DNA from: an uncultured Chloroflexia bacterium
Lineage (GTDB): Bacteria > Chloroflexota > Dehalococcoidia > DSTF01 > JACRBR01
DNA: 64,000 nt
NCBI GenBank assembly: GCA_963843685.1
Contig: CAWJLO010000006.1
Span: 41,680 to 105,679 of the forward strand
Reading direction: 5' to 3'
This document shows, piece by piece, positions 9,148 to 64,000 of this stretch; the stretch's first letter is position 1; each line of letters starts with the position of its first letter. Position numbers and translations under genes: made by a program. The notes beneath the pieces are model-generated. The model saw only the letters and a list, made by a program, of their open reading frames with translations. It was not told the origin of the DNA and made no database searches.

Positions 9148-9196
9148 CTACGAAGCGTATCGGACGGGCTGCATGCGCCCCAGCGGGGCGGCGGGG

Positions 9197-9898: not shown

Positions 9899-9959
9899 GA
9901 TCAGGTCTCCAGGCAGCTGCCCGGATCATATCGCGGATGCGGCCTTGGCCGCGCGAAGG

Positions 9960-21878: not shown

Positions 21879-21885
21879 CGGCGCC

Positions 21886-23320: not shown

Positions 23321-23360
23321 CGTTCGACTGCACACTGCCTGCCCCCCGTCGACGAGGAGA

Positions 23361-23715
23361 TCACGCCGCCGACATGCGCCGTCGGCGTAGGCTTCGCCGC
23401 AGCAGAAGCGTCGACCCGACGGGCGTCAGTATCGCTGCGATGAACAGAGCGCCGGCGGTAGGGATCAGGTGAACCTCGTTCCTGGGCGGTTCTGAGAAGC
23501 ACCCCGATCGCGAGATAGGCGACGCTGATCATGATGAACCCGCCGAGCGTGATCATCCGGATCACTGCGACAACACAACTAGCCTCCCATTCGCCGCACA
23601 GAAGCCAGCCGAGTCCGCTTGTAAAGGAGACTCCCAACAGAACATTAAATATGGAATCAGGGAGAGTGGCCGGAGGCGCGTCAGACCACACCAGTAGCGC
23701 GAAGAGCGTTCGCAT
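23361..23715 (-). CDS. small hypothetical membrane protein (about 3 TM), possibly frameshifted near 23470-23480
   Basis: The ORF 23317..23715 gives MRTLFALLVWSDAPPATLPDSIFNVLLGVSFTSGLGWLLCGEWEASCVVAVIRMITLGGFIMISVAYLAIGVLLRTAQ. A -1 shift continues as a third TM helix plus a positive tail, NEVHLIPTAGALFIAAILTPVGSTLLLRRSLRRRRMSAA*. It lies in a locally lower-GC patch. Coordinates are approximate. Confidence 0.35.
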
Positions 23716-26712: not shown

Positions 26713-28196
26713 GCGCCTTCTTCCTCTTCACGCCGCGCAGCTGATCGACGCGCTTCCGGGCGCGGCGGAGCGCCGCCCCGACCTGGCGCGGCGCCGTCCC
26801 GCCCGGCACGTCGCGCGACCGTAGCGACGTCATGACGTCGATGCCGAGCGCATCGGACTGGAACAAGGGCGAGAACCGCCGCAGCTCCTCGAGCGAGAGC
26901 CGCCCGAGCTCCGCGTTCTTGCCTTCCGCGTAGCGGACGAGCTTGCCGACGGCCTCATGCGCCTCCCGGAACGGCAGCCCCTTGCGCACGAGGTAGTCGG
27001 CGAGGTCCGTGGCGAGCGAGTAATTGGCGACGGCCGCCTTGCGCGCGCGCTTCGCGTCGACCTCGATCTTCGGCAGCATCGCGGCGAGCACCTCGAGCGT
27101 GGAGAGCAGCGTGTCCTCCGTCTCAAAGAGCCACGGCTTGTCCTCCTGCAGGTCGCGGTTGTACGCGAGCGGCAACCCCTTGAGCGTCGTCAGCATGCCG
27201 ACGAGCGCGCCGATTGCGCGGCCCGTGCGCCCGCGCGCCAGCTCAGCGACGTCGGGGTTCTTCTTCTGCGGCATGATGCTGGAGCCCGTCGCGAACGCGT
27301 CCGGCAGCCGGATGAAGGCGAACTCCGCGCTCGACCACAGCACCAGCTCCTCGGCCAGCCGCGACACGTGCACGAGGCAGAGCGCGGCGGCGCTCAGATA
27401 GTCGACGACGAAGTCACGGTCCGACACGGCGTCGATGCTGTTGGCGGACACGCGGTCGAAGCCGAGATCGCCGGCGACGGAGGCGCGATCGATCGGATAC
27501 GGTACGCCGGCCAGCGCGCCGCTGCCGAGCGGCATCTCATCCATCATCTCGTGCGCGAAGGCGAAGCGCGCGGCGTCGCGGTCGAACATCTGGACGTAGG
27601 CGAGCAGGTGGTGGGCGAGCAGCACCGGCTGCGCGCGCTGCATGTGCGTGTAGCCCGGCATGGCGACGGACTTGTTCGCCTCCGCCAGCTCCAGCAGCGC
27701 CGATTCCAGCGCCAGCAGCGCGGCGATCGCCCGTCCGCACGCGCCCTTCACGTACATGCGGAAGTCCGTGGCGACCTGGTCGTTACGGGAGCGCGCCGTG
27801 TGCAAGCGACCCGGCCGCCGGGCCGATCTTCTCGGCCAGCCGCGCCTCCACGTTCATGTGCACGTCCTCGAGGTCGTCGCGCATGACGAACTCGCCGCGC
27901 GCGTACTCGTCGAGGATCTGCTGCAGACCGCGGACGATGGCGTCGGCGTCCTTCTTCGCGATGATGCGCTGCCGCCCCAGCATGCGGGCGTGCGCGATGG
28001 AGCCGGCGACGTCCTCCGGGAGGAGGCGCGCGTCGACGGAGGTGGACGAGGTGTAGGCCTCGACCATCTGGTCGGTGGCGGACGCGAACCGGCCGCCCCA
28101 CGGCTTGGGCGCGCCGGATCCTGGCGCGGCCCCATTGCGAGACGGCGCGCCGGAGCGCTTCGCCGGACGGCGCGGCGGGGTCTTTGACGTGGCCAC
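26708..28196 (-). CDS. argH: argininosuccinate lyase, apparent single-base frameshift at ~27809-27811
   Basis: N-frame (27783..28196): ...WGGRFASATDQMVEAYTSSTSVDARLLPEDVAGSIAHARMLGRQRII...EDVHMNVEARLAEKIGPAAG. C-frame (26708..27805): (R)LHTARSRNDQVATDFRMYV...GYTHMQRAQPVLLAHHLLAY...SSIMPQKKNPDVAELARGRTGR... The junction gccgg[g]tcgcttgcac would read GRLHTARSRND with one G removed. A ~30-aa N-terminal extension before WGGRF leaves the start uncertain. Confidence 0.8.
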
Positions 28197-41342: not shown

Positions 41343-42827
41343 TCAGGCGAAGATGTTGGTCGCGCGCTGCGCCGCTTCGATCAGCGGGATCGGGTACACG
41401 CCGAACGTCAGCACGCCGAGACCGGCGAGCACCAACAGGCCCTCGGTGAGGATCGGCGTGCGGAGCGCGGGCTCCCCCTCCGCCTCACTCAGGTACATCT
41501 GCCGCGCCACGCCGAGGTAGTAGAAAGCGGACACGGCCGTATTCAGCACGGCGATGACCACCAGCCACACCAGGTCCGCCTGGACGGCCGCATTGAAGAT
41601 GTAGATCTTTGCGATGAACCCCGCCGTCGGCGGCAGTCCGGTCAGCGACAGCAGGCAGAAGAGCAGCACCGCCGCCGGGATCGGCGCACGTCGGCCCATG
41701 CCCGCGTAATCGGCGATCTCGTCGCTCCCCGTGCGCGCGCCGATGGCCATCACGGCGAAGAAGGCGCCCAGGTTCGTGAACGCGTACGTCGCGAGGAACA
41801 GCACGACGCCGCTGGCCCCCGGCAGCGAGCCGCCGTCCGTGATGTACGTGACCGCCGCGAGCCCGACGAGGAAGTTGCCCGCCTGCGCGATCGAGCTGTA
41901 ACCCAGCATGCGGCGGATGTTCGTCTGTCGCAGCGCCATCACGTTCCCGACCGTCATCGACACCGCGGCCAGCACCGCGAACAGCATCTTCCAGTCGTTG
42001 CCCACGAACGTGTGCGGGCCGAACCCCTCGAAGAAGATCCGCATCACCACGGCAAACGCCGCCGCCTTGCTGCCGACCGAGAGGAACGCCGCGACCGGCG
42101 CCGGCGCGCCCTGGTACACGTCCGGCGTCCACATCTGGAACGGCACGATCGCCATCTTGAAGCCGAAGCCCGCCGCCATGAACACCATGCTGAAGATCAG
42201 CGCCGAGCGGATGCCGCTGTCGCCGGACGCGATCGTCGACGCGATGCTCGGCGAGCCGTCGGTGCTGATCAGGTGCGTAGTGCCGGCGATGCCGAAGAGG
42301 AACGCCATGCCGTACAGGATCACGGCCGACGCGACCGCCCCGAGCAGCAGGTACTTCAGCGCGGCCTCGCTGCCCTGGTCGTCACGCAGGAAGCCGGCAA
42401 GGATGAACTGCGTGATGCTCGTCAACTCCAGCGAGACGAAGATCGTGACGAGGTCGCGTGCGCCGGACAGCAGCATCATGCCCGACGTGGCGATCAGCAT
42501 CAGCGCGAAGAACTCGCCCTGCCGCGGGCCGAACTTGTCGGTGTAGTCGAGCGAGGCGAGGATCACGGAGCCGGACACGCCGATGAAGAGGAACGTGAAG
42601 AAGATGCTGAAGTTGTCGAGCGCCATCGTGTCGTCGTAGAACGACGCCTGCCGGTCGCGCAGTATCAGGATGACGAGCCACAACGCCGCCGCGCCCAGTC
42701 CGGCGATCGCGACGCCCGCCAGCCATTTCTTTCGGTCGCTAGGCGTCGCCAGGTCGCCGATCAGCACGAGGCCGGCCGTGACCATGACGGCGACGATCGG
42801 CCCCAGGCGGTCGAGGTCTGCCAGCAT
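41343..42827 (-). CDS. nuoN: NADH-quinone oxidoreductase subunit N
   Basis: The start is taken at MLADLDRLGPIVAVMV (ATG 42827, overlapping the nuoM TGA by 1 nt; TGATG). The ORF-track N-extension to 43019 is Arg-rich. 494 aa, a NuoN-type antiporter-like subunit. Confidence 0.85.
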   Translation of the reverse strand: MLADLDRLGPIVAVMVTAGLVLIGDLATPSDRKKWLAGVAIAGLGAAALWLVILILRDRQASFYDDTMALDNFSIFFTFLFIGVSGSVILASLDYTDKFGPRQGEFFALMLIATSGMMLLSGARDLVTIFVSLELTSITQFILAGFLRDDQGSEAALKYLLLGAVASAVILYGMAFLFGIAGTTHLISTDGSPSIASTIASGDSGIRSALIFSMVFMAAGFGFKMAIVPFQMWTPDVYQGAPAPVAAFLSVGSKAAAFAVVMRIFFEGFGPHTFVGNDWKMLFAVLAAVSMTVGNVMALRQTNIRRMLGYSSIAQAGNFLVGLAAVTYITDGGSLPGASGVVLFLATYAFTNLGAFFAVMAIGARTGSDEIADYAGMGRRAPIPAAVLLFCLLSLTGLPPTAGFIAKIYIFNAAVQADLVWLVVIAVLNTAVSAFYYLGVARQMYLSEAEGEPALRTPILTEGLLVLAGLGVLTFGVYPIPLIEAAQRATNIFA

Positions 42828-44326
42828 CAGCCCAGCACCTTCACGATGTTGATGATCCCGGTATCGAGCACGTCGGTGACAAGCGACGGCCGCAGCCCGA
42901 CGCCGACGATGACGATGACGAGCGCGGCCATGGGGATCTGCTCCCACCACATGTTCGCGTCGGGCAGTTTTTCCCAGCGCTCGTTCTTCGGCCCGAAGAA
43001 GACGCGCTGCACCGTCCACGTGATATATCCCGCTGAGAGCAGGATGCCGAAGACGGCGATGATCGTCGGCGCGGTGTACTTGTCGAAGCTGCCGAGGAAC
43101 ACGAGCAACTCGGCGACAAAGCCGGACATCGCCGGCAGCCCGAGTGCGGCCAGCCCGGCGATGATGGCAACCGTGGCCGCCAGCGGCATGGTGTTCGCGA
43201 GGCCGGAGAGCTGGTCGATATCGCGCGTGTGGGCGCGGTCGTAGATGATGCCCACCATCACGAAGAGCAAGGCCGTGATCGTGCCGTGCGTGAACATCTG
43301 CAGCGCCGCGCCGTCCAGGCTGACGTGGCCCAGCGCGGCGACGCCGAGCAGCACGTAGCCCATGTGGCTGACGCTCGAATAGGCGACGAGGCGTTTCAGG
43401 TCCTTCTGTCTCAGCGTGAGGACGGCACCGTAGATAACGCTCACGGCGGCCAGCGTCGCAAGCCAGACGCCGTAATCAGACGCGGTCTTCGGCATGAGCG
43501 TGATGAGGACGCGCAGGATGCCGTAGCCCCCCATCTTCAGCAGCACGCCGGCCAGGATGACGGAGACGGCCGTCGGCGCGTCGGTGTGGGCATCAGGCAG
43601 CCACGTGTGCAGCGGGAACACGGGCAGCTTCACCGCAAAGGCGATGAAGATGAAGCCGAAGATCAGCCAGAGCGGCATCAGCGTGCTGGAGATCGTGCTC
43701 TGTTGCAGCGCCACCATGTCGAAGGTGTGTACCGGTTCGGCGCTGAAGCCCATCACGAGGAAGCCGACGAGCATGAACGCGGAGCCGGCGACGGTGTAGA
43801 GCAGGAACTTCATCGCCGAGTACTCTTTGCGCCCGCTGCCCCAGACCGAGATCAGCATGTACATCGGCAGCAGCTCGACCTCCCAGAACAGGAAGAACAG
43901 GATCAGGTCGAGCGACGTGAAGACGCCGAGCACTCCCGTCTCGAGCGCGAGCAGCCAGATGAAGTACTCCTTCGTGCGGAGCTTCACGCCGAACGAGATC
44001 AGCGTGGCGACGACGAACAGGAACGTCGTCAACAGCACCATCGTGATGCCGAGGCCGTCGACGCCCATGTGGAACTGCACGTCGAAGCCAGCCTTTGCGG
44101 AGTCGATCCACGTGGCCTGCGTGGAGAACTGGAACGGCGACGTCTGCACCTGACCTGGGCTACGGGCGAACTGCGCCAGCAGGATGAGAGACGTGATGAA
44201 CACGGTCCCCGTCGCCATGAGCGCGAGCCACTTCGTCTGACCCTGGTCGTCGCGCGGGACCGTCAGCAGGATCACAGCGGCGGCGGTGGCCGGGAAGAAG
44301 ACGGTGAAGACGAGCACTCCGTTCAC
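42827..44326 (-). CDS. nuoM: NADH-quinone oxidoreductase subunit M
   Basis: 499 aa; MNGVLVFTVFFP..., antiporter-like ND4 family. Confidence 0.85.
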   Translation of the reverse strand: MNGVLVFTVFFPATAAAVILLTVPRDDQGQTKWLALMATGTVFITSLILLAQFARSPGQVQTSPFQFSTQATWIDSAKAGFDVQFHMGVDGLGITMVLLTTFLFVVATLISFGVKLRTKEYFIWLLALETGVLGVFTSLDLILFFLFWEVELLPMYMLISVWGSGRKEYSAMKFLLYTVAGSAFMLVGFLVMGFSAEPVHTFDMVALQQSTISSTLMPLWLIFGFIFIAFAVKLPVFPLHTWLPDAHTDAPTAVSVILAGVLLKMGGYGILRVLITLMPKTASDYGVWLATLAAVSVIYGAVLTLRQKDLKRLVAYSSVSHMGYVLLGVAALGHVSLDGAALQMFTHGTITALLFVMVGIIYDRAHTRDIDQLSGLANTMPLAATVAIIAGLAALGLPAMSGFVAELLVFLGSFDKYTAPTIIAVFGILLSAGYITWTVQRVFFGPKNERWEKLPDANMWWEQIPMAALVIVIVGVGLRPSLVTDVLDTGIINIVKVLG

Positions 44327-44330
44327 GCGG

Positions 44331-46304
44331 CTACCTCTCCACCAGGATCAGCGTCAGGAACGCCATCAGCAGCAGCCCGGCGAAGCCGACGCTCCCGTAC
44401 GCCTGGAACGAACCGGACTGGATCCATCGCAGGCCGTCGCTGATCTTCCCCGCCAGCCAACCTGCGCCGTTGACCGCACGGTCGACGACGTTGGTGTCGA
44501 ACCACTGACCCGCGAACGTGGCGGTGCCGTACAGGCCGCGCCGGATGATCACGTCCTCGTACAGCTCATCCATGTAGTACTTGCGCGCGACGAGCGTGTG
44601 GACCGGGCCAAAGACCTTCTGCAGCGATTCGGCCGTAACCACGCGCACCTGGTAGATCGCGTACGCGACGCCGATCCCCGCGAGGGCGAGCAGCGTCGAA
44701 AGGGCGGCGAGGCCGAAGTTGAACCCTTCGTGGTGTAGCGACTCCGCGGACGACGCCGGGAGCGCCCCCTCAAGCAGGTGCGCGAGACCCTCCGTCGCGT
44801 TGTTCGGGAAGTTGACGAAGCCCGCGAGCGCCGCAGGCACCGCCAGGATCAACAGCGGCAGCGCCATGACGAGCGGCGACTCGTGGGGCGCGCCGGCGTG
44901 TGCGTCGTGGGCGCCGTGCTCCGGCGCCTCGCCACCCTTGTACTCGCCCTCGAACGTGAGGAAGATCGCGCGGAACGTGTACAGCGCCGTCATGAACACG
45001 ACGGCCATGCCGATGACCCAGAGGAACTTGTCGTCGGCCCAGGCCGCGCCCAGGACCTCGTCCTTCGACCAGAATCCCGCGAACGGGACGACGCCCGACA
45101 GGCTCAGCCCGCCGATGAGGAACGTGGCGAACGTGATGGGCATGTGCTTGCGGAGGCCGCCCATCTTCCGCATGTCGAACGTGCCAGTTGCGTGGTTCAC
45201 GGAGCCGGAGCCCAGGAACAGCAGCGACTTGAAGAAGGCGTGCGTGAACAGGTGGAAGATCGCCGCCACATAGCCACCCGTGCCGAGCGCGAGCATCATG
45301 TAGCCGAGCTGGCTGATCGTCGAATACGCGAGCACCCGCTTGATGTCGGTCATGACGATGCCCATGGACGCAGCCATGATCGCCGTGAAGGCGCCGATGT
45401 AGGCGACGGTGTGCAGCGCCGTCGACGAGACCTGGAACACCGGGTACATGCGCGCGACGAGATAGACGCCGGCCGCGACCATCGTCGCGGCGTGGATGAG
45501 CGCGGAGACCGGCGTCGGGCCCTCCATCGCATCGGGGAGCCAGACGTGCAGCGGGAACTGCGCCGACTTGCCGACAGCGCCGGCGAAGATGCCAAGCGCG
45601 AAGAGCGTCAGCACAGCGTCGCTGAGTTGGTGATTCTGGGCGATCTGCTGGATCAGCGGGATGTTGAAGGTATCCGTCTTCGTCCAGATCAGCAGGATGG
45701 CGAGCAGGAAGCCGATATCGCCGAGGCGGGTCGTGAGGAAGGCCTTCTTCGCCGCGTCGCCCGCCGACTTCTTCTGGAACCAGAACCCGATCAGCAGGTA
45801 GGAACCGAGACCGACGAGCTCCCAGAACACGTACATGATGAGGATGCTGTCGACCATGACCAGCCCGAGCATGGCGGCCGTAAACAGCGACATCCAGGCG
45901 AAGTAGCGGGAGTAGCCGCCATCGCCCTCCATGTAGCCCTGCGAATAGACCTGCACCAGCAGCGAGACCGACGTGACGACGACAAGCATGATCGCGCTCA
46001 GACCGTCGATGCGGAGACCGACGTTGACCGTCAGGCTGGGGCCGCCAAGCTGCTGCAGGATCGGATTGTCGGCGTGGATGGAGAGCCACTCGTACGTGCC
46101 GAAGTGCAGCGCCTGGCCGTCCGTGTTGATCACGCTGTCCAACGCCCAGAGCGCGAACAGAAACGCCGTGCCCACGGCGGCGATGGTGACGTAGCCGGAC
46201 AGCCGCGGATACGGCTTCGTGATGAAGCCGATGATCAGCAGCGAGGCGACCGGCAGCAGCAGGATCGACCAGGCGACGCCTTCGGGGATCGTCGGTAGGA
46301 GCAC
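44331..46304 (-). CDS. nuoL: NADH-quinone oxidoreductase subunit L
   Basis: 657 aa; ND5 family with the long C-terminal horizontal-helix region. Confidence 0.85.
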   Translation of the reverse strand: MLLPTIPEGVAWSILLLPVASLLIIGFITKPYPRLSGYVTIAAVGTAFLFALWALDSVINTDGQALHFGTYEWLSIHADNPILQQLGGPSLTVNVGLRIDGLSAIMLVVVTSVSLLVQVYSQGYMEGDGGYSRYFAWMSLFTAAMLGLVMVDSILIMYVFWELVGLGSYLLIGFWFQKKSAGDAAKKAFLTTRLGDIGFLLAILLIWTKTDTFNIPLIQQIAQNHQLSDAVLTLFALGIFAGAVGKSAQFPLHVWLPDAMEGPTPVSALIHAATMVAAGVYLVARMYPVFQVSSTALHTVAYIGAFTAIMAASMGIVMTDIKRVLAYSTISQLGYMMLALGTGGYVAAIFHLFTHAFFKSLLFLGSGSVNHATGTFDMRKMGGLRKHMPITFATFLIGGLSLSGVVPFAGFWSKDEVLGAAWADDKFLWVIGMAVVFMTALYTFRAIFLTFEGEYKGGEAPEHGAHDAHAGAPHESPLVMALPLLILAVPAALAGFVNFPNNATEGLAHLLEGALPASSAESLHHEGFNFGLAALSTLLALAGIGVAYAIYQVRVVTAESLQKVFGPVHTLVARKYYMDELYEDVIIRRGLYGTATFAGQWFDTNVVDRAVNGAGWLAGKISDGLRWIQSGSFQAYGSVGFAGLLLMAFLTLILVER

Positions 46305-46311
46305 TATTCCT

Positions 46312-46503
46312 CTAAATCTTCCGCATGATCTCCTGGGCGACGTGCGTCTTGCTGTCCGGCACCCAGATCTCGCGTGGCTCGGCCATCGGCGCGTCGCCCG
46401 TCAGCGGCGGTACGACGCGGTTCGACACGCCCTCTGCGTCGAAGAGCTCCTTCCACACCTCGGCGGCGTAACCGTTCTTCACGTCCATCAGCTTGGACCA
46501 CAT
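46312..46503 (-). CDS. small (63 aa) soluble protein inserted between nuoK and nuoL; DUF2007-like (PII-like fold) by recollection
   Basis: MWSKLMDVKNGYAAEVWKELFDAEGVSNRVVPPLTGDAPMAEPREIWVPDSKTHVAQEIMRKI. It fills the nuoK-nuoL gap exactly (8 nt before the nuoL start, 50 nt after the nuoK stop). Composition is not Arg-rich, unlike the antisense ORFs. Confidence 0.55.
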   Translation of the reverse strand: MWSKLMDVKNGYAAEVWKELFDAEGVSNRVVPPLTGDAPMAEPREIWVPDSKTHVAQEIMRKI

Positions 46504-46513
46504 CTCGCTATCA

Positions 46514-46533
46514 GAACCTCGAACCTAGAACCT
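46514..46533. repeat. triple direct repeat GAACCT-c-GAACCT-a-GAACCT (mRNA sense AGGUUC x3, 7-nt period) in the nuoK-small-ORF intergenic region
   Basis: Read directly: tcaGAACCTcGAACCTaGAACCTgg, immediately upstream (mRNA sense) of the 46503 start codon. Confidence 0.8.
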
Positions 46534-46553
46534 GGCACCGCGCGATCCGGAAG

Positions 46554-46886
46554 TCACCATTTCAGCAGATCAATCTCGTCGATGTTCACCGTGCCGCGAT
46601 GGCGGTATACGGCAATCGCCAGCGCGAGCGCGACCGACGCCTCGGCCGCTGCTACGGTGATGACGAAGAGCGCGAATACCTGGCCGTCGAGCGGGTGCGG
46701 CGACACGACGAACCGCGAGAACGCGAGCAGTGTCACGTTGACGGCGTTGAGCATCAGTTCCACGCCCATCAGTACGCCGATCGCGTTGCGCTTCGACAGT
46801 GCCAGAAAGAGCCCGATCGCGAAGAGGAACGCGCCGACGACGAGCACGTTCTCCAGGCGCACCGAGGCCAGCAACACGTCAGGCAC
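46554..46886 (-). CDS. nuoK: NADH-quinone oxidoreductase subunit K
   Basis: 110 aa; ...IGVLMGVELMLNAVNV..., ND4L family, 3 TM. Confidence 0.85.
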   Translation of the reverse strand: MPDVLLASVRLENVLVVGAFLFAIGLFLALSKRNAIGVLMGVELMLNAVNVTLLAFSRFVVSPHPLDGQVFALFVITVAAAEASVALALAIAVYRHRGTVNIDEIDLLKW

Positions 46887-47394
46887 CCTCGCCCTCCTCC
46901 TCGTCTTCCTTCGTGAGGACGATCGCGCCGATCATCGCCGTCATCAGGAGCACGGAAGCAACTTCGAACGGCACGACGTACGGCTTGAGAAAGGCCTCGC
47001 CGAGCGACGCCGCCGTCGCCGGGAAGGCGCCGCGATTCGAAAGGTTCCAGTCAGTGTCATACGCCACGAACGTGATGACGGCGAAGACGAGGCCGGCGAG
47101 GATGGCGGCCGGACCGAAGAACGCTGTCTCCGAGTTCTCACGGTCGGCGGCGGGCGTCAGCATCACGGCGAACGTCATCAGCACGGCGACCGCCCCGGCG
47201 TAGATGAGGATCTGCGCCACGGCAACGAAGTCGGCTGAGAGTACGATGTAGATTCCGGCCACGCCGACAAACGTAAGCGCGAGAAACAGCACCGCGTGGA
47301 TGAGTTCACGTACGAGGGCGACCATCACGGCACAGCCCGCGGTGGTGAGCGCCAGGATCCAGAACGCCACGGTGATGCCGGTGTCGTCGATCAA
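46879..47394 (-). CDS. nuoJ: NADH-quinone oxidoreductase subunit J
   Basis: TTG 47394 (GGGGAG 8 nt upstream): MIDDTGITVAFWILALTTAGCAVMVALVRELIHAVLFLALTFVGVAGIYIVLSADFVAVAQILIYAGAVAVLM..., ND6 family. The ORF-track N-extension to 47574 is Arg-rich and overlaps nuoH. Confidence 0.8.
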   Translation of the reverse strand: MIDDTGITVAFWILALTTAGCAVMVALVRELIHAVLFLALTFVGVAGIYIVLSADFVAVAQILIYAGAVAVLMTFAVMLTPAADRENSETAFFGPAAILAGLVFAVITFVAYDTDWNLSNRGAFPATAASLGEAFLKPYVVPFEVASVLLMTAMIGAIVLTKEDEEEGEGA

Positions 47395-47413
47395 GCGCCG
47401 CACTCCCCTGGTG

Positions 47414-48709
47414 TCATGCGGGCTGCACCCCGGTGCGCGCCGCATCGGCGGCCGTCGCGGCCGGCAGCGACGGCACGTCGATGTCGGAGTAGTAGCGAAG
47501 GCGCGTCGGGAATCGCTCGAATTTCGGCGCAAGCAACCGCATGAAGGCGAAAATCGTCGCTCCGGCGAGCACATTGTTGATGATGACGTACAACGGGATC
47601 ACAATGCCGGCGCTCCACCCTGTCTCGTCCCAGATCAGCACTTCGGCGGCGACCAGCACGACGTTCAGGATGGCCATCGGCGTCATCCACTTCCACGCGA
47701 ACGCCAGCAGTTGGTCAATACGGAATCGCGGCAGCGTACCGCGCGTCCAGACGAAGAGGAAATACACCGTGTAGATCTTGCCAATGTAGATCATCCATCC
47801 GGGGACAATCTCGTCGAGTTTGTAGGCCCACCATCCGCCAAGGAACATCGTTGAGATAATGCCCGAGACGACGACGGCGTTGACCAGCTCGGCGGCGTAG
47901 AAGAGACCGAACTTCATGCCGGAGTACTCGGTGTGGTAGCCGCCCACGATCTCCGACTCGGCCTCGGCGATATCCGCCGGCGTCCGGTTCAACTCCGCCG
48001 AGACCGAGATGAAATAGATGAAGAACGGGAGCGGCTGAAGCAGCACCATCAGCACCCAGTACTTCTCCTGGAAGAGGACGATGCCCTCCAGGTTCATCGT
48101 GCCGGCGAAGAGCACGACGCCCAGAAGCGCGAGCACGATCGGGATCTCGTAGCTCACGAACATCGCGATGACGCGCATCGAGCCGAAGAGCGAGTACTTG
48201 TTGTTGGAGGCGTAGCCCGCCATGAAGACGGCCAGCGCGCCGAGCGAGGACGCCGCGAGCAGGAACAGCACACCGACGTCGAGCTGGGCGAGCGTCATGT
48301 TGCGGCCCCACGGCAGCACCGCCATCAGCACGATGCCGGGCGCCATGAACATGATCGGGGCAAAGGTAAAGATGAGTCCGTACGCGGTCTTCGGCTGCAG
48401 CACTTCCTTCTGCATCAGCTTGATCGCGTCGGCGACGGGCTGCAGCAGGCCGAACGGGCCCAGGCGGTTCGGCCCGAGACGCGACTGCATGCGGCCGACG
48501 ACGCGACGCTCGATCCAGATGTTGATGATCGCTACACCGCCGATGAACGAGACGATACCCGCCGCGCCGAGCAACCCGGAGACGACGTAGATCAGCCAGT
48601 GCGGGCCGTTGGCGTCGCTGATCAACTGCTCGATCTTGTGGCTGAGGTTCGACAGGTCGCGGATGTCGTACCAGCGCTTCGTGATGATCGTCAGCAGCAG
48701 TGCGTTCAT
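47414..48709 (-). CDS. nuoH: NADH-quinone oxidoreductase subunit H (with extra C-terminal TM/tail)
   Basis: 431 aa; ...IERRVVGRMQSRLGPNRLGPFGLLQPVADAIKLMQKE...TRGTLPRFRIDQLLAFAWKWMTPMAILN. An ATGA overlap joins it to the nuoD stop. An additional ~65-aa C-terminal segment carries a predicted TM helix (GIVIPLYVIINNVLAGATIFAFMRLL). Confidence 0.85.
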   Translation of the reverse strand: MNALLLTIITKRWYDIRDLSNLSHKIEQLISDANGPHWLIYVVSGLLGAAGIVSFIGGVAIINIWIERRVVGRMQSRLGPNRLGPFGLLQPVADAIKLMQKEVLQPKTAYGLIFTFAPIMFMAPGIVLMAVLPWGRNMTLAQLDVGVLFLLAASSLGALAVFMAGYASNNKYSLFGSMRVIAMFVSYEIPIVLALLGVVLFAGTMNLEGIVLFQEKYWVLMVLLQPLPFFIYFISVSAELNRTPADIAEAESEIVGGYHTEYSGMKFGLFYAAELVNAVVVSGIISTMFLGGWWAYKLDEIVPGWMIYIGKIYTVYFLFVWTRGTLPRFRIDQLLAFAWKWMTPMAILNVVLVAAEVLIWDETGWSAGIVIPLYVIINNVLAGATIFAFMRLLAPKFERFPTRLRYYSDIDVPSLPAATAADAARTGVQPA

Positions 48710-49812
48710 CGGTCAACCTCGCCGACGTTGATGTCGATGCTGCCGAGCGTCACGATGGCGTCGGCGATGGTCTTGCCGACGGTCATCTCCTTGAGGACGC
48801 TCAGGTTGATCAGCGAGGGGCTGCGCACGTGCCAGCGGTACGGCGCGGGGCCGCCGTCGCTGACGACGTAGAAGCCCAGCTCACCCTTCGGGGACTCGAC
48901 CCGCGAGTAGGCCTCGCCGGCCGGCGGCCGGATCGCGAGCGGCACATCAGTCTTGTGGAGACCGCCCGGGAGGTCGTGCACCGCCTGGCGGATGATACGC
49001 AGGCTCTGCTTCATCTCCTCGATCCGGATCAGCATGCGGTCATATGCGTCGCCGTTGTACCCGACGGGGATGTCGAACTTCATGCGGTCGTAGACGCAGT
49101 AAGGGTCGGCCTTGCGCGTGTCCCATGCGATGCCGGCCCCACGGAGCATCGGGCCCGTGAGCGAGGCATTGATCGCCATCTCCGGCGTGACGACGCCGAC
49201 ATCGCGCGCCCGCATCATGATGATCTCGTTGCCGACGAGGAGCTGGTCGTACTCCTCGAACCGGTACGGCAGATCGTCGTTCACTAGCTTGTCGAGCGCG
49301 GGCAGGAACTCGTCGGGAATGTCAAAGGCAACGCCGCCGATCCGCATGTAGTTGGTCGTCAGCCGGGCGCCACACGTCATCTCAAAGAGATCGAGCACCT
49401 TCTCGCGGTCGCGGAAGCAGTACATGACAGGCGTTTGCCAGGCGCCGCAGTCGTTGATGAAGGCGCCGGTGGCCATGCAATGGCTCGCGACGCGCTGCAA
49501 CTCCGAGAAGATGACGCGCAGGTATTGAGCGCGCTCCGGCACCTCGATGCCGGCGAGTTTTTCGACGGAGAGGCAGTATCCCAGGTTGCCCGTCATGGCC
49601 GCGAGGTAGTCCATGCGGTCCGTGAAGGGGATGTTCTGCGTGTAGGTGCGCTCCTCCGCGAGCTTCTCCATGCTGCGGTGCAGGTAGCCGACGACCATCT
49701 TCACGTCAACGATGCGTTCGCCGTCGATCTTCGCGACCATGCGAAACACCCCGTGCGTGCTCGGGTGCTGCGGTCCGATGTTGACCTCGACGGGAGCAGA
49801 CGTAATCGGCAC
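48706..49812 (-). CDS. nuoD: NADH-quinone oxidoreductase subunit D
   Basis: 368 aa; ...NIGPQHPSTHGVFRMVAKIDGERIVD...GYLHRSMEKLAE..., 49-kDa subunit. Confidence 0.85.
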   Translation of the reverse strand: MPITSAPVEVNIGPQHPSTHGVFRMVAKIDGERIVDVKMVVGYLHRSMEKLAEERTYTQNIPFTDRMDYLAAMTGNLGYCLSVEKLAGIEVPERAQYLRVIFSELQRVASHCMATGAFINDCGAWQTPVMYCFRDREKVLDLFEMTCGARLTTNYMRIGGVAFDIPDEFLPALDKLVNDDLPYRFEEYDQLLVGNEIIMMRARDVGVVTPEMAINASLTGPMLRGAGIAWDTRKADPYCVYDRMKFDIPVGYNGDAYDRMLIRIEEMKQSLRIIRQAVHDLPGGLHKTDVPLAIRPPAGEAYSRVESPKGELGFYVVSDGGPAPYRWHVRSPSLINLSVLKEMTVGKTIADAIVTLGSIDINVGEVDR

Positions 49813-49833
49813 GAAAGTCCTTCTCGCGCCCGG

Positions 49834-50415
49834 CTAGACCCCGGTGCCGGGGTGCTTCGGGCGAAACTCCTGTCCCGTCTGGCCCGGGACCTGCTTCGGG
49901 AACTGGCTCAGCCCGGACTTCTGGCCGCCGGGCATGGCCATGAAGTCCTTGCGCAACGGATGGCCCGGGAACTGCTCCCAGAGAAACAGCCGCGTGAGCG
50001 CGGGGTGTCCCGTGAAACGCACGCCCATCAGGTCGTACACCTCCCGCTCCTGGAGCCAAGCGCCGATCCATAACGCCGAAATTGATGGCACCTCCGGCTG
50101 CTCGTGGTCCGCCGGCACCTTCACCTCGAAGATGTGGTTCTGCGCCAACGACGAGAAGTGATACACGACGTCCATCCGCGTGACCACATCGACGCTGCAG
50201 AGCTGAACCAGGAACTTGCCGTCGAGCACGGCGTCGTCACGCACGGCGCGCATGGCTTCGAACGCGTGCTCGGGCTCGAGCACAACGTAAGCGTCGTGTA
50301 CGTCACGCACGGCGGCGGGGACGGTCACACGGATGCGCTCGGCCACGAACGCCCCGGGGAGTGTCACCGTCGCGGGGTTCGGCACTACAACCACTCCATG
50401 GCGCGCTTCCGCCAT
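49834..50415 (-). CDS. nuoC: NADH-quinone oxidoreductase subunit C
   Basis: ...VDVVTRMDVVYHFSSL...PSISALWIGAWLQEREVYDLMGVRFTGHPALTRLFL..., 30-kDa subunit. The ATG at 50415 overlaps nuoA by 31 nt. An in-frame GTG at 50385 (GGAG 8 nt upstream, TAGTG 1-nt overlap with the nuoA stop) may be the true start. No nuoB lies between nuoA and nuoC. Confidence 0.8.
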   Translation of the reverse strand: MAEARHGVVVVPNPATVTLPGAFVAERIRVTVPAAVRDVHDAYVVLEPEHAFEAMRAVRDDAVLDGKFLVQLCSVDVVTRMDVVYHFSSLAQNHIFEVKVPADHEQPEVPSISALWIGAWLQEREVYDLMGVRFTGHPALTRLFLWEQFPGHPLRKDFMAMPGGQKSGLSQFPKQVPGQTGQEFRPKHPGTGV

Positions 50416-50756
50416 GCGTAGGCGTAGCCGACGCCGAGGATAGCGATGAAGATCAACGCCTCCACGAACGCATACACCCCCAGGTGCCGGTAAGCGGCGG
50501 CCCAGGGATAGAGAAAGACGGCCTCCACGTCGAAGACGACGAAGAGCAGGGCGAACAGGTAGTAGCGCACGTTGTACCGGACGTGGGCATCACCGATGGG
50601 GACCATGCCGCACTCGTAGACCGACTCTTTGACCGGGTCGGGGCGGCGCGGGCGGATATGGAAAATGCCGAGAGCAACCGACGCCACGATGGGGATGAGC
50701 GGGAACGCGACAGCAAAGATCAGCAGGAATCCGGCTCGGCCAAACTGCTCGATCAC
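50385..50756 (-). CDS. nuoA: NADH-quinone oxidoreductase subunit A
   Basis: 123 aa (GTG start); ...PIVASVALGIF...KESVYECGM...YYLFALLFVVFDVEAVFLYPWA, ND3 family. Confidence 0.85.
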   Translation of the reverse strand: MIEQFGRAGFLLIFAVAFPLIPIVASVALGIFHIRPRRPDPVKESVYECGMVPIGDAHVRYNVRYYLFALLFVVFDVEAVFLYPWAAAYRHLGVYAFVEALIFIAILGVGYAYAWRKRAMEWL

Positions 50757-52006: not shown

Positions 52007-52291
<285 letters not shown>

Positions 52292-52499
52292 GGCGGTGGT
52301 GCTCCTTGTGCTTTCCGTCGCAAAGTTCGACGGCATTGTATGAGGCGCCCTGCCGCAGTGGAAGTAGTTTTCGAAACTCATTACTTGTTTTATCCCCATT
52401 TCGACCGGACTGGCGCCGAGCGGCGCCAACCGAGAACCGCAGGGGGCTCATAGGCGTACACTGACATTGACCACAAGCCGCAGCGGGTCGGGAGGAACG

Positions 52500-59961: not shown

Positions 59962-60567
59962 ATGGCACTTGACCTCTTCAATCGCCGCTCCCAAAAGGAT
60001 CACGCGACCTACGGCGACCGGTTGCCGGCGGGCCAGAAGCTGACGGACGGCTGGCCGGTGCTGCACTACGGCAGCATCCCGTCGATCGAACTCGGCGCCT
60101 GGAAGTTCTCGGTCGTCGGGCTGGTCGACGAGGAAGTGAACTTCACCTGGGAGGAGTTTCTGGCGCTGCCGCAGTCCACCATCCGCTCTGACATCCATTG
60201 CGTCACCCACTGGAGCAAGTTCGACAACGACTGGACCGGCGTGAGATTCACGGACCTCATGCAACACGTGAAGCCAAAGCCCGAGGCGAAGCACGTCATG
60301 GTGCACGGCTTCGGCGGCTACACGACGAACGTGCCGCTGGCGGAGCTGATGGATGACGACGTGCTGTTCGCCCACCAGCACAACGGCGAACCGCTCGCGA
60401 AGGAGCACGGCTGGCCGCTCCGGCTGGTGGTACCCAAACTCTACTTCTGGAAGAGCGCCAAGTGGGTACGTGGCCTCGTGTTCATGGAAGACGAGAAACC
60501 GGGCTTCTGGGAGATGTACGGCTATCACATCCACGGCGACCCCTGGACTGAGGAGCGCTACTCGTAG
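59962..60567 (+). CDS. sulfite-oxidase-fold molybdopterin oxidoreductase (small cytoplasmic YuiH-like form)
   Basis: 201 aa, no signal peptide. Mo-ligating Cys context IHCVTHWSKFDNDWTGV, and ...VMVHGFGGYTTNVP...WPLRLVVPKLYFWKSAKWVRGLVFM. Confidence 0.75.
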   Translation: MALDLFNRRSQKDHATYGDRLPAGQKLTDGWPVLHYGSIPSIELGAWKFSVVGLVDEEVNFTWEEFLALPQSTIRSDIHCVTHWSKFDNDWTGVRFTDLMQHVKPKPEAKHVMVHGFGGYTTNVPLAELMDDDVLFAHQHNGEPLAKEHGWPLRLVVPKLYFWKSAKWVRGLVFMEDEKPGFWEMYGYHIHGDPWTEERYS

Positions 60568-60568
60568 G

Positions 60569-61567
60569 ATGGCCGAACTCGACCTGACGGACCGCCGGAT
60601 TCTCAATGCGCTGCAGGGCTCGCTGACCCTGGACGAGACGCCGTTCGCCTCGATCGCCGAAGAGTGCGGCGTCACCGAGGACGAGCTGCTCCGGCGAGCT
60701 CAGGCGCTGCGGGACGACGGCGTACTCCGGCACCTGAGCCCGATCTTCGACGTCTTCCGCATCGGCTACAAGAGCGCGCTGATCGCCTTCGCCATCGACC
60801 CGGCGCGGCTGGACGAAGCCGCGGCGGTCGTCAGCGCACACCCTGGCGTGAGCCACAACTACGCGCGCGAGCACCATTTCAACCTCTGGGCCGTGCTGGC
60901 GATCCCGCGAGAGCAAGATTTTGACGCGGAGGTGGAGGCGCTGGCGCGTGGCGCGGGCGCGATCTCGTATCACATTCTGCCCGCGCTCAAGCTGTTCAAG
61001 ATCGCCGTTGAGTACGACATGGTCGGCAAGAAGACGGACTCAAGGCCCCGCGAGCAGAAGCCCCGTGGCCCTCGCCGCGACCTGACGGCGGAGGAGCGCG
61101 CGATCATCCGCGTCTGCCAGGACGACCTGCCGCTCGTGCGGCGGCCCTGGGCATCCGCGGCGCGACAGTTGGGCATGAGTGAGCCGGATCTGCTCGACAG
61201 GCTGCGCGCGATGGAACAGGACGGCATCTTGCGCCGGATGGCCGCAGTGCTCCGCCACCAGGAGGCGGGATTCAGCGCAAACGGCATGGCGTGCTGGCGC
61301 GTGCCCGAAGAGCGCATCGAGGAAGTCGGTTCGATCCTGGCGGCGGACCCTCGTGTGAGCCACTGCTACTGGCGGCCGACGTTCCCGGACTGGCCCTACC
61401 CGCTGTTTTCGATGGTGCACTGCGAGACGCGCGCCGATGTCGCCGCGATCGTCGCCGACCTCTCCGGCAAGACCGGCGTCACCGACTACGAGATCCTCTG
61501 GAGCGCGCGAGAGTACAAGAAGGAGCGCGTGCGCTACTTCGCGGACGCGCCCGCTGCCACGCGCTGA
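60569..61567 (+). CDS. fused siroheme decarboxylase (NirD-NirL / AhbA-AhbB type, tandem Lrp/AsnC-like repeats)
   Basis: ATG 60569, 2 nt after the Mo-enzyme stop. Repeat 1: MAELDLTDRRILNALQGSLTLDETPFASIAEECGVTEDELLRRAQALRDDGVLRHLSPIFD...VSHNYAREHHFNLWAVLAI. Repeat 2: LTAEERAIIRVCQDDLPLVRRPWASAARQLGMSEPDLLDRLRAMEQDGILRRMAAVLRHQEAGFSANGMACWRVPEERIEEVGSILAADPRVSHCYWRPTFPDWPYPLFSMVHCETRADV...TDYEILWSAREYKKERVRYF. This is a close match to AhbA/NirD sequences. Confidence 0.8.
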   Translation: MAELDLTDRRILNALQGSLTLDETPFASIAEECGVTEDELLRRAQALRDDGVLRHLSPIFDVFRIGYKSALIAFAIDPARLDEAAAVVSAHPGVSHNYAREHHFNLWAVLAIPREQDFDAEVEALARGAGAISYHILPALKLFKIAVEYDMVGKKTDSRPREQKPRGPRRDLTAEERAIIRVCQDDLPLVRRPWASAARQLGMSEPDLLDRLRAMEQDGILRRMAAVLRHQEAGFSANGMACWRVPEERIEEVGSILAADPRVSHCYWRPTFPDWPYPLFSMVHCETRADVAAIVADLSGKTGVTDYEILWSAREYKKERVRYFADAPAATR

Positions 61568-61641: not shown

Positions 61642-62247
61642 TTGCCGTCCATCACCATCGTCCCGCACAAGGTCTCCACGCGCATCACGGATCCGATCGT
61701 CTCGCCGCTGGCGGCGGCCGGTGTGACGCCGAACATGATCTCAGTGGCGGGGTTCGGCGGGAACGTCGCTGCCGGCGCGCTGGCGGCGGGCGGCCACTTC
61801 CTCTGGGCCGGCGCCGTGATGCTCATCTTCAGCGCCCTGGACCTGCTGGACGGCGCGCTCGCCCGCAAGACGGGGACCGTGACAAAGTTCGGCGCGGTGT
61901 TCGACTCGGTGCTCGACCGCGTGTCCGAGGCGGCGGTCCTCGGCGGGCTGCTGTTCCACTACACGGAGGCCGGCGGACACACGCAAGAGATCGTGCTGTG
62001 CTACGCCGCAATCGTGGGCTCAATCATGGTGAGCTACGTGCGGGCACGCGCCGAGGGCATCGGGTTGACGTTGCGGGAGGGGCTGTTCACGCGCGCCGAG
62101 CGGGTGATCTTGCTCGGGGGGGCGCTGGTCGTGGGGCATGGCGTTGTGGTTTGGGCGCTTTGGGTGCTCGCCGTTATGTCACATCTAACCGCCGTGCAAC
62201 GCGTCTTCAATGTGTGGCAACGCACGTCGGGCGATGCGGCCGCGTAG
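61642..62247 (+). CDS. CDP-alcohol phosphatidyltransferase family protein
   Basis: Motif D-x2-D-G-x2-A-R-x8-G-x3-D-x3-D (DLLDGALARKTGTVTKFGAVFDSVLDRVSE); about 6 TM. The start is assigned to TTG 61642 (LPSITIVPHKVSTRITDPIV...); the ORF-track N-terminus from 61291 is Arg-rich. Confidence 0.7.
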   Translation: MPSITIVPHKVSTRITDPIVSPLAAAGVTPNMISVAGFGGNVAAGALAAGGHFLWAGAVMLIFSALDLLDGALARKTGTVTKFGAVFDSVLDRVSEAAVLGGLLFHYTEAGGHTQEIVLCYAAIVGSIMVSYVRARAEGIGLTLREGLFTRAERVILLGGALVVGHGVVVWALWVLAVMSHLTAVQRVFNVWQRTSGDAAA

Positions 62248-62256
62248 CCGACGGAC

Positions 62257-63048
62257 ATGCCCGTGATCCCCGAACGCGAGCAGCGCATCATCCAGGAGCG
62301 ATTCGCGGCCGAGCTCGCCGGGCGCGTCCGCATCGACTACTTCACCCAGCACAGGTCCCCCATCGTCGTGCCGGGGCGCGCCGAGTGCCGGCACTGCGAG
62401 GAAGTCGGCCAGGCGCTCGTCGAGGTCGCGGCGTTGCACCCGCGGATCGCGCTCACCGTCCATGAGTTCGCGGAAGGGCAGGCTGATGCCGAGAAACTCG
62501 GCGTGAAGCGCGTGCCATGCACCGTCATCCGGGGCCAGGCGAACCGTGCGCTCCGCTACTACGGCCTGCCCGGCGGCCACCAGTTCGCGAACCTCATCGA
62601 AACGATCATTATGTCGTCGCGCGCCGACGTCACGATCGGGCATGACGCATTGGTAGCCCTGAAGAAACTGCGCGAGGCCGTCCGCGTCAGCGTGTTCGTT
62701 ACGCCCGCCTGCGAGTACAGTGCAGTCGTGGCGAACATGGTGTTCCGGATGGCGCTGACGCAGGCGAACGTGAAGGCGGAGGTGGTGGAGATCGGCGAGT
62801 TTCCGGAGCTGGTGCAGCGCTTCGCGGTGACGGCCACGCCTACCACGGTGATCGACGGACGCACGTCGATCCGCGGGCTCATCGACGAGACGCAGCTGGC
62901 GACGCAGATCGTCCGCTCGGTCGAGTCGGAAACCACGCCCGCATCGATCGACGCCGGCCCGGCGACCCCGTTCGAGACCGAGCCCCCGACGCAACCGGCA
63001 ACCATCGCGGATCCCGCCGCCCCGCGCATCTACATCCCCGGCCGATGA
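62257..63048 (+). CDS. thioredoxin-fold protein with two tandem Trx-like domains (PDO/glutaredoxin-like), CxxC + CxxS
   Basis: 263 aa; domain 1 GRAECRHCEEVGQAL, domain 2 FVTPACEYSAVVANMV; Pro/Thr-rich C-terminal tail. Confidence 0.65.
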   Translation: MPVIPEREQRIIQERFAAELAGRVRIDYFTQHRSPIVVPGRAECRHCEEVGQALVEVAALHPRIALTVHEFAEGQADAEKLGVKRVPCTVIRGQANRALRYYGLPGGHQFANLIETIIMSSRADVTIGHDALVALKKLREAVRVSVFVTPACEYSAVVANMVFRMALTQANVKAEVVEIGEFPELVQRFAVTATPTTVIDGRTSIRGLIDETQLATQIVRSVESETTPASIDAGPATPFETEPPTQPATIADPAAPRIYIPGR

Positions 63049-64000
63049 CGAGTATCCCCATCGAGGAGAGCGACGCCGCAGCCGCGTCCGAGGAGCCGGT
63101 CGCCGGCACGCTCGAACGGGCGCTCAACTTCGACCTGTCGCGACCGTTCGCCTTCATCGTGCTGGCGATCGCCTACGTCGCGGGACGAGCGCCGTTCATC
63201 AACGACGGATTCGGGACCAAGCCGGACGCCTGGCGCATCGCCTTGTCGGGGTGGTGGCTCTGGGACCGGCACGAGTTCTACCCCTCGCGGCTGCCCGGCT
63301 ATCCCGTGGCGGAGCTGGGCTTCGCCTCGGTGATCAAGGGCGGCTGGGTCGCGACGAACTCGCTCACGATCGCCGTCTCGCTGCTGGGGCTGTGGTTCTT
63401 CGCCAACATCGTGCGGAAGGTCAACCTCCCGAACCGGGCGCTGATCGTCGTCGGCTTCGCGTTCCAACCGCTGATCTGGATCAACACGATGAACACGATG
63501 GACTACGCGTGGGCGCTCACGTTCATCCTGGGCTCGTACTACTTCCTGCTCCAGCGGCACACGTCGCTGGCGGGGCTGATGCTCGGCCTCGCGATCGGCT
63601 CGCGCGTGCCCTCGGCGGCGATGCTGGTACCCGCGATTATCTACCTGTGGCGCGACGGAAAGCGAAACGAGCTGCGCGACTTCGTCGTCTGGGCCGTCTT
63701 CGTGCCGATGATCGCCTTCTTCCCGATCGTCTGGAGATACGGCCCCGACTTCCTCAGCTTCTACGACGCGAAGGTCGGCTACCGGACGGTCATCCGCTTG
63801 CTGGCGAAGGACTCGCTGGGCCTGGTGGGTGCGCTGGCGGTGACGGCGGGCGTCGTCGTGTCCCTGCCGCGCCTGGCGAAGCTGCCGGGCGACGTCTGGC
63901 GCGACAAGAACGTGATGTTCTGGGCGCTGACCATCGTGTTGTACCTGATGGTCTTCTTCCGCCTCCCCCACGAGGCGGCGTACATGCTGCCGCTGTTCCC
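63045..64000 (+). CDS. polytopic membrane protein, GT-C/mannosyltransferase-like (DUF2029-like); 3' end beyond window
   Basis: ATG 63045 overlaps the preceding stop (ATGA). MTSIPIEESDAAAASEEPVAGTLERALNFDLSRPFAFIVLAIAYVAGRAPFINDGFGTKPDAWRIALSGWWLWDRHEFYPSRLPGYPVAELGF...IWINTMNTMDYAWALTFILGSYYFLL... This shows multiple TM helices and normal composition. The opposite-strand ORF 63030..63971 is R/D/E/Q-rich antisense. Confidence 0.5.
   Translation, partial: MTSIPIEESDAAAASEEPVAGTLERALNFDLSRPFAFIVLAIAYVAGRAPFINDGFGTKPDAWRIALSGWWLWDRHEFYPSRLPGYPVAELGFASVIKGGWVATNSLTIAVSLLGLWFFANIVRKVNLPNRALIVVGFAFQPLIWINTMNTMDYAWALTFILGSYYFLLQRHTSLAGLMLGLAIGSRVPSAAMLVPAIIYLWRDGKRNELRDFVVWAVFVPMIAFFPIVWRYGPDFLSFYDAKVGYRTVIRLLAKDSLGLVGALAVTAGVVVSLPRLAKLPGDVWRDKNVMFWALTIVLYLMVFFRLPHEAAYMLPLF

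Follow-up and report, generated by a model that had tools for sequence, protein, structure and literature searches.

Complex-I-like enzymes are encoded in several layouts besides that of the 14-subunit NADH-oxidising complex I with its N-module of NuoE, NuoF and NuoG. The cyanobacterial and chloroplast NDH-1 is a complex-I-like enzyme without NuoEFG, whose ndh genes are dispersed and whose subunits assemble in trans; ndhK, the counterpart of nuoB, is found together with ndhC and ndhJ, and ndhI together with ndhA, ndhG and ndhE. The 12-subunit complex I of the Campylobacterota contains NuoG, has NuoE and NuoF replaced, uses flavodoxin as the electron donor, and has all of its genes in one operon. 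Here we describe a nuo operon within a 64,000-nucleotide stretch of DNA from an uncultured Chloroflexia bacterium (GenBank assembly GCA_963843685.1, contig CAWJLO010000006.1, positions 41,680 to 105,679; hereafter the window). The operon encodes NuoA, C, D, H, J, K, L, M and N and, like its counterparts throughout the clade, lacks exactly nuoB and nuoI, with the remaining core genes in order.

The window operon resembles the 11-subunit type that has no NuoE and NuoF. It likewise contains no nuoE or nuoF, the best-matching NCBIfam models for its NuoA, NuoC and NuoD belong to this type, and its NuoD is 50-63% identical to the proteins of Heliobacteria and sister Dehalococcoidia that have such an operon. 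It differs from this type in being without nuoB and nuoI, and in carrying an open reading frame (ORF) of 63 amino acids (aa) between nuoK and nuoL. The split of the NDH-1 genes, unlike the one described here, leaves the iron-sulfur (Fe-S) subunits with the rest. Mrp antiporters and the MBH, MBS and FHL complexes have homologous membrane subunits, which appear here as secondary NCBIfam matches.

A similar layout is on record from a different phylum. All of the metagenome-assembled genomes (MAGs) of peatland Acidobacteria tabulated by Hausmann et al. (2018, ISME J, PMC6018796) have nuoACDHJKLMN operons, of which one per MAG also contains nuoEFG, and Table S2b of that study places nuoB and nuoI on different scaffolds of these MAGs. 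These operons are thus likewise without exactly nuoB and nuoI; however, since one operon per MAG includes nuoEFG, the Fe-S subunits are not fully separated there, and the NuoD phylogeny makes an independent origin likely. In that study, the layout is tabulated and not analysed. Our literature search returned no description of an operon layout without nuoB and nuoI for Chloroflexota, and nothing specific for Gemmatimonas.

Results

The operon leaves no room for nuoB or nuoI

The nuo cluster lies at positions 41343-50756 of the window (all coordinates follow the 64-kb window numbering unless another locus is named), on the minus strand, in a region of 64-69% GC. Pfam and NCBIfam assignments gave the order nuoA-C-D-H-J-K-(63-aa ORF)-L-M-N, and the same genes were called independently on an identical, separately assembled 9.8-kb contig (L001; GCA_964418935.1). 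The gene list of the initial annotation, which had been made from the sequence alone, was thus correct for the nine nuo genes, but it had missed the conserved 63-aa ORF (Table 1). The membrane subunits A, H, J, K, L, M and N were all recognised by both Pfam and NCBIfam, and L, M, N and H each scored above at least one curated model cut-off. All nine nuo ORFs are intact, high-scoring, tightly packed and translationally coupled.

We then read the junctions at which nuoB and nuoI would be expected. The stop codon of nuoA and the GTG start of nuoC have one base in common (TAGTG), which is one of the two overlaps given in the initial annotation; nuoD and nuoH overlap by 4 nt, and the ATG of nuoN, placed by the L001 gene call and by alignment to relatives, shares one base with the nuoM stop. 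For nuoJ, there are two candidate starts. The TTG at 47394, which is the choice of the gene caller, lies 19 nt past the nuoH stop and is preceded by a Shine-Dalgarno sequence, GGGGAG, whereas the ATG at 47434 overlaps nuoH by 21 nt. The 21-nt overlap originally proposed for nuoH and nuoJ is therefore possible with the ATG, but the TTG gives a 19-nt gap instead. Under either nuoJ start, the A/C and H/J gaps are too small, and neither junction has room for nuoB or nuoI, in agreement with the initial annotation.

The two genes were also sought elsewhere in the window. The six-frame search found no GCPP motif in the 64 kb, and a single CxxCxxCxxxCP motif, which belongs to a 7Fe-type ferredoxin. 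Furthermore, tblastn with four in-situ NuoB/NuoI queries from two lineages and with the orphan-type NuoB, NuoI and NuoG-like proteins described below gave no match in the window. A hidden or frameshifted copy, the finding that would have overturned the initial annotation, is thus ruled out for this stretch by the negative six-frame motif search and the negative tblastn with six NuoB/NuoI queries. The N-module of the 14-subunit enzyme is missing as well: the Pfam scans found no NuoE, NuoF or NuoG among the approximately 50 other predicted genes of the window, which have housekeeping functions instead, and tblastn together with these scans bears out the reported absence of nuoEFG across the 64 kb.

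The arrangement is standard in its clade

To place the window operon among its relatives, NuoD was used to scan one genome per species, which returned 80 loci, in which the nuo genes were placed by tblastn and the junctions were measured. The clade comprises the loci, from species-level genomes, whose NuoD is at least 69% identical to that of the window (69-96%), and 53 of these were assessable. All come from high-GC MAGs of soil or groundwater that carry the label Dehalococcoidia or Chloroflexota, and 53 of 53 share the gene order without nuoB and nuoI, with an A-C gap of median -1 nt (maximum 108 nt) and an H-J gap of median 18 nt (maximum 264 nt), and no NuoB or NuoI match was found inside the stored flanks (~10 kb) of any clade locus. 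In contrast, 13 outgroup loci (other Dehalococcoidia, Anaerolineae, a Clostridia MAG, Heliobacteria and Chthonomonas) have A-C gaps of 498-787 nt and H-J gaps of 387-1727 nt, corresponding to nuoB and nuoI, respectively; tblastn placed nuoB between A and C in 13 of 13 and nuoI between H and J in 12 of 13. In one outgroup locus (L079), the nuoI match begins inside the nuoH match.

This recurrence of the junctions in 53 genomes indicates that the arrangement is neither an artefact nor a one-off. The initial annotation had named, as an outcome that would count against its oddity, a gene order standard in the lineage with nuoB and nuoI encoded elsewhere. This is essentially what we found, so that the finding is less odd than first rated.

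In a neighbour-joining tree of NuoD, the loci lacking nuoB and nuoI form one clade nested among Dehalococcoidia that keep both genes, and the window operon groups with the ordinary 11-subunit operons of sister Dehalococcoidia. Three further loci without the two genes branch apart from this clade, namely L062 (a groundwater Chloroflexi MAG), L077 (9098-12994, Latescibacterota) and L080 (495-4384, Gemmatimonas). The latter two are bare nuoA-C-D-H-J-K clusters without B, I, L, M and N, and have unrelated flanking genes, such as one for a sigma-70 protein with ankyrin repeats. Exactly nuoB and nuoI have thus left the operon more than once; counting the Acidobacteria, they are gone independently in at least three further lineages (L062, Gemmatimonadota/Latescibacterota and Acidobacteria).

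NuoD keeps the quinone site

The best solved-structure match of the window NuoD is Nqo4 of T. thermophilus (E 4e-106), and the protein scores 358 bits against complex I, versus 184 against MBH and 150 against FHL. Its residues H16, H20, Y69 and D121 correspond to Nqo4 His34, His38, Tyr87 and Asp139, and none of the four varies among the 60 NuoD sequences from loci without nuoB and nuoI. Of all the subunits, NuoD is also the one conserved best within the clade. Neither metal-binding cysteine motifs nor NiFe motifs occur in its sequence (C-terminus GSIDINVGEVDR), and the operon thus does not encode a group 4 [NiFe] hydrogenase of the MBH or FHL kind. Nor does it encode an Mrp-type antiporter: it has NuoC, D, H, A and J, its L, M, N and K match Mrp models only in second place, it contains no MrpE, F or G, and the quinone site is conserved here.

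A conserved quinone pocket would be senseless without cluster N2, which suggests that the N2-carrying NuoB is still required. By this inference from the NuoD sequences, the enzyme would still need NuoB. The earlier remark that NuoB and NuoI are core to every complex-I-like enzyme is correct.

Orphan nuoB genes and a nuoI/nuoG-like pair

We then searched for copies of nuoB outside the operons. A protein search with the in-situ NuoB of L056, a relative that keeps both genes, did not reveal a clade copy, as the best 120 matches were all L056-like in-situ genes. When metagenome contigs were scanned for the NuoB motif VDVY[IV]PGCPPRPE in GC-rich codons, 120 loci were returned, and in three of them (L157, L190 and L198) nuoB has no adjacent nuoA or nuoC. 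The encoded proteins are Dehalococcoidia-like in sequence and have all four N2 cysteine ligands. Searches with these orphan NuoB led to a large family of proteins named NuoB at NCBI, from Chloroflexi, Chloroflexota or Dehalococcoidia MAGs. The orphan NuoB passes the NCBIfam NuoB cut-offs, and the proteins of the family (L209 132-818; L157, L190, L198 and L202-L221) share a conserved C-terminal extension of ~30 aa, GDFSxYLPxxDPxRxELExLFPP, which is absent from the in-situ NuoB sequences compared.

The genomic context was examined in 23 contigs (20 from homologue look-ups, plus L157, L190 and L198), and the orphan nuoB is monocistronic and outside nuo operons in all 23. A suf operon or an IscA-like gene lies in the neighbourhood in most contigs, a cysteine desulfurase gene is directly upstream of nuoB in many, and genes for an S26 peptidase and a Ni-superoxide dismutase (Ni-SOD) adjoin it, in the recurrent order cysteine desulfurase, nuoB, S26 peptidase, Ni-SOD. 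In most loci that are long enough, a gene for a 166-aa protein, followed after 4 nt by a gene for an 875-887-aa protein, occurs within ~7 kb of the orphan nuoB; downstream of this pair are a DUF2007-like ORF (77-83 aa) and a gene with a LON substrate-binding domain.

The best NCBIfam model for the 166-aa protein is NuoI (TIGR01971), below its cut-off. Its top 17 solved-structure matches are all TYKY/NuoI subunits of complex I, aligned from the N-terminal signature segment onward. The closest relative of the 875-887-aa protein is FdsA of NAD-dependent formate dehydrogenase, with NuoG more distant. Since its counterpart of the Mo-ligand Cys/Sec-His pair is Val-Thr, the protein was rejected as an active formate dehydrogenase, and it is, as judged from the alignment, a degenerate NuoG-like Fe-S protein. 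Apart from it, no N-module protein is encoded next to the orphan genes.

The operon and an orphan nuoB occur in one MAG

The two kinds of loci could be connected in the MAG OFTM331 (assembly GCA_029262675.1), in which an orphan nuoB (P0376) is located on JAJCYW010000010.1 (326 kb) and the operon of the clade member L027, without nuoB and nuoI, on JAJCYW010000021.1 (266 kb). The orphan NuoB of this MAG is intact and has all N2 ligands. P0376 was the only looked-up orphan nuoB in a listed clade assembly, and eleven others fell in unlisted MAGs. The initial annotation had argued that nuoB and nuoI must be encoded elsewhere, and this is supported by the intact quinone site of NuoD, the family of orphan nuoB and nuoI genes and the nuoB of OFTM331.

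Other contigs provided further points of contact, although the first comparison of the operon and orphan loci at the DNA level had found no shared flanks. An insertion sequence of the rve family is common to L219, which carries an orphan nuoB, and L043, which carries an operon without nuoB and nuoI. The copies are 99.5% identical over 1120 nt; the one in L043 (7644-8762) precedes nuoA by ~0.1 kb, and the one in L219 (2676-3794) precedes the orphan nuoB by ~6 kb. L219 is a 1.65-Mb contig with a GC fraction of 0.578, and that of L043 is 0.579. The shared element supports the view that nuoB lies outside the operon in one and the same genome. In addition, a four-gene block at the right end of the window is collinear with genes ~8 kb downstream of the orphan nuoB in L217. 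There are also hints that the L190-type NuoB pairs with the L027 subclade, and a 246-aa type with the L043/L048 subclade.

A separate observation concerns L066 (2109-6042), whose NuoD is 92% identical to that of the window. Homologues of an NTP-transferase and a short-chain dehydrogenase are encoded 3-7 kb upstream of its nuoA, and the same two genes flank the orphan nuoB in L217, so that the operon and orphan nuoB neighbourhoods may once have been adjacent.

Accessory features and neighbouring genes

NuoH has an N-terminal extension of ~35 aa and, past the end of its Pfam domain at residue 354, a C-terminal hydrophobic segment at residues 366-395. The extra C-terminal helix noted in the initial annotation is therefore real by hydropathy analysis. 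The same C-terminal extension occurs in L056, in which nuoI is in place, and since relatives that keep nuoI also have the helix, it is unrelated to the missing genes.

The 63-aa ORF between nuoK and nuoL was found by tblastn at 58-97% identity in 55 clade loci, that is, in every locus spanning the nuoK-nuoL gap, and at 39-42% identity in four Dehalococcoidia with nuoB and nuoI in place. Its product is soluble and cysteine-free, with a Pfam DUF2007 match (E 4e-4) below the cut-off. It was rejected as a substitute Fe-S protein because it contains no cysteine and is weakly DUF2007-like. The DUF2007-like ORF that follows the nuoG-like gene at the orphan locus is the second of this kind, and the 63-aa ORF may encode an unrecognised accessory subunit or assembly factor.

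Like nuoA, the gene for the 7Fe-type (FdxA-like) ferredoxin is on the minus strand; it is located 1.3 kb upstream of nuoA, with a divergent DUF5317 gene in between. As a replacement for NuoI the ferredoxin was set aside, because it is of the generic FdxA type without the NuoI N-terminal segment. Weak ferredoxin-like matches were also seen upstream of nuoA in L004 and L015.

Some relatives show additions to their own nuo operons. In two Dehalococcoidia, L057 (12143-14068) and L059 (11098-14127), the in-place NuoI has a large GltD/SudA-like insert, recognised by reading the sequence without a family scan, which resembles the small subunit of glutamate synthase; in L059, an uninterrupted ORF of 1010 aa spans NuoH through NuoI, so that nuoI is fused to nuoH. 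From its sequence, the insert hints at direct NAD(P)H input at NuoI. L056 has a 573-aa ORF (8280-9998) between nuoC and nuoD with a CxxxCxxC-like motif, which by eye, without a family scan, looks like a radical SAM protein, and L058, L061 and L063 have C-D gaps of similar size (~1.7 kb).

Elsewhere in the window, several housekeeping genes look split or truncated, which points to frameshifts in the contig sequence or to pseudogenes; all nuo genes are intact. The window also has a siroheme decarboxylase-like fusion gene, an indication of the alternative haem biosynthesis route.

Table 1. Position of the nuo genes and of other features in the 64-kb window.
Feature	Position	Strand	Description
nuoA	50385-50756	-	123 aa, GTG start; Pfam Oxidored_q4 E 2e-36; best NCBIfam model NuoA PRK07756; L001 gene call agrees
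nuoC	49834-50385	-	183 aa, GTG start; Pfam Complex1_30kDa E 7e-35; homology in close relatives begins at the GTG
nuoD	48706-49812	-	368 aa; NCBIfam NuoD models passed, 471 bits vs cut-off 360
nuoH	47414-48709	-	431 aa; Pfam NADHdh E 7e-106, residues 52-354
nuoJ	46879-47394	-	171 aa from TTG 47394; Pfam Oxidored_q3; L001 gene call
nuoK	46554-46886	-	110 aa; Pfam Oxidored_q2 E 2e-27; NCBIfam NuoK
63-aa ORF	46312-46503	-	between nuoK and nuoL; called as a gene in L001
nuoL	44331-46304	-	657 aa; NCBIfam NuoL 665 bits vs cut-off 556; Pfam Proton_antipo_N, Proton_antipo_M, Proton_antipo_C
nuoM	42827-44326	-	499 aa; TIGR01972 NDH_I_M 530 bits vs cut-off 264
nuoN	41343-42827	-	494 aa; TIGR01770 NDH_I_N 371 bits vs cut-off 333
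7Fe-type ferredoxin	52007-52429	-	FdxA-like
RNase PH	17846-18581	-	two 109-aa ORFs
ADP-forming acyl-CoA synthetase	21357-23472	+	two overlapping ORFs
Ribulose-phosphate 3-epimerase and argininosuccinate lyase	25873-26484, 26708-27805	-	partial Pfam profile matches only
Siroheme decarboxylase-like fusion	60353-61567	+	NirDL/AhbAB type; two helix-turn-helix plus AsnC-like halves
Right-end block	61651-64000		CDP-alcohol phosphatidyltransferase, 69-aa ORF, Thioredoxin_3, membrane protein

Discussion

The operon described here is a variant, in gene order, of that of a known enzyme; such an order is the rule in its lineage and has a precedent in another phylum. What is unusual is the gene arrangement, and a new enzyme is probably not involved. 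On the sequence evidence, we consider it likely that the genes specify a known NuoEF-less, complex-I-like, quinone-reducing proton pump, split between loci, with products that join in trans. The window operon would make all of the cofactor-free subunits, A, H, J, K, L, M and N together with NuoC/NuoD, plus the small DUF2007-like protein. NuoB, with cluster N2, would come from the monocistronic gene that is typically found just downstream of a cysteine desulfurase, near suf/iscA and beside Ni-SOD, and NuoI, with clusters N6a and N6b, would be encoded beside the catalytically degenerate FdsA/NuoG-like Fe-S protein. The subunits would then assemble in trans into an ordinary L-shaped enzyme, in which electrons would pass from a donor, possibly via the NuoG-like protein, to NuoI, on to N2 in NuoB and finally to quinone at the NuoD/NuoH/NuoB pocket. 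We infer that the genome of the window carries the same orphan genes, that their products assemble together, and that the NuoG-like protein is part of the complex. If it does belong, the composition would be A, B, C, D, G-like, H, I, J, K, L, M and N without NuoE/F, as in the Campylobacterota; however, the G-like protein here is nearest to FdsA, with the catalytic Cys-His changed to Val-Thr, and its membership is deduced from adjacency.

Several observations weigh against this split-locus interpretation. The 166-aa NuoI-like protein scores 94.8 bits, whereas the NCBIfam NuoI cut-off is 113, and what links the NuoG-like protein to the complex is gene adjacency. The connection of nuoB with the operon in OFTM331 depends on MAG binning, although the two contigs are large (326 kb and 266 kb), and the nuoI/nuoG-like pairs were seen in related MAGs, none of them tied to the MAG of an operon without nuoB and nuoI. 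Furthermore, the orphan genes are extrapolated to the genome of the window, which represents 64 kb of a 236,737-bp contig.

The initial annotation had offered another explanation, a second, partial paralogous cluster that borrows NuoB and NuoI, and perhaps NuoEFG, from a complete operon, giving an isoenzyme whose quinone pocket or proton channel would differ. Several nuo operons per genome are known in Chloroflexus and Acidobacteria, the bare nuoA-C-D-H-J-K clusters of L080 and L077 are more consistent with a swap-in module than with a complete enzyme, and the evidence for the clade comes from contigs and MAG loci, not from whole genomes. However, the nuoB and nuoI genes of the family that were examined all stand alone or have the nuoG-like gene as their only partner, and thus lie outside nuo operons; the NuoD phylogeny derives the operon from the ordinary 11-subunit operon of sister Dehalococcoidia; and the operon has its own L, M and N and is conserved in every species sampled. 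The paralogue explanation thus finds no support in these data, and we regard it as unlikely. Still less probable is a true loss of NuoB and NuoI, leaving an Fe-S-free enzyme, such as an Mrp-like ion translocator, or one in which an unrelated redox partner docks on NuoD. The absence of B and I within ~10 kb of the operon in any clade member would fit such a loss, as would the 7Fe ferredoxin gene upstream of nuoA, but the ferredoxin is generic, the quinone-binding His, Tyr and Asp are invariant in the most conserved subunit, NuoD itself contains no cysteine motifs for metal binding, and an intact NuoB with all N2 ligands is encoded in the same MAG as one of the operons.

Since some window genes look split (RNase PH as two ORFs) or truncated (argininosuccinate lyase), which suggests frameshift errors, an artefact of assembly or binning, or decay, was also considered, that is, a misassembled contig with two deletions or an operon in the course of decay. 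The independently assembled contig L001 is, however, identical across the cluster, the same junctions recur in 53 genomes that were sequenced in many studies and on various platforms, and the nine ORFs are intact and high-scoring, so that the probability of this explanation is negligible. The split-locus interpretation can be extended to a selected design, in which the Fe-S wire would form a cartridge under its own regulation, linked to Fe-S supply or oxidative stress and serving one or several sets of membrane-arm subunits, and the pair of NuoI and the FdsA-like protein would be a new electron-input module for 11-subunit enzymes. We put this forward as a speculative proposal that is more probably wrong than right.

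The known picture of the core mechanism of the enzyme is unchanged by these results. Mildly new are the sharp division of the Fe-S from the non-Fe-S subunits, the position of nuoB behind a cysteine desulfurase, the pairing of nuoI with an FdsA-like gene, and the repeated, independent exit of the same two genes from the operon. For annotation, tools that judge completeness from the operon alone would score complex I of abundant soil Chloroflexota as incomplete, while it is most likely complete but split. The apo-subunits are kept together, the Fe-S subunits are placed near Fe-S biogenesis genes, and such a split has evolved repeatedly, which hints that the redox wire is regulated or assembled separately; the degenerate FdsA/NuoG-like partner of nuoI is a candidate for the electron-input side of a NuoEF-less complex I.

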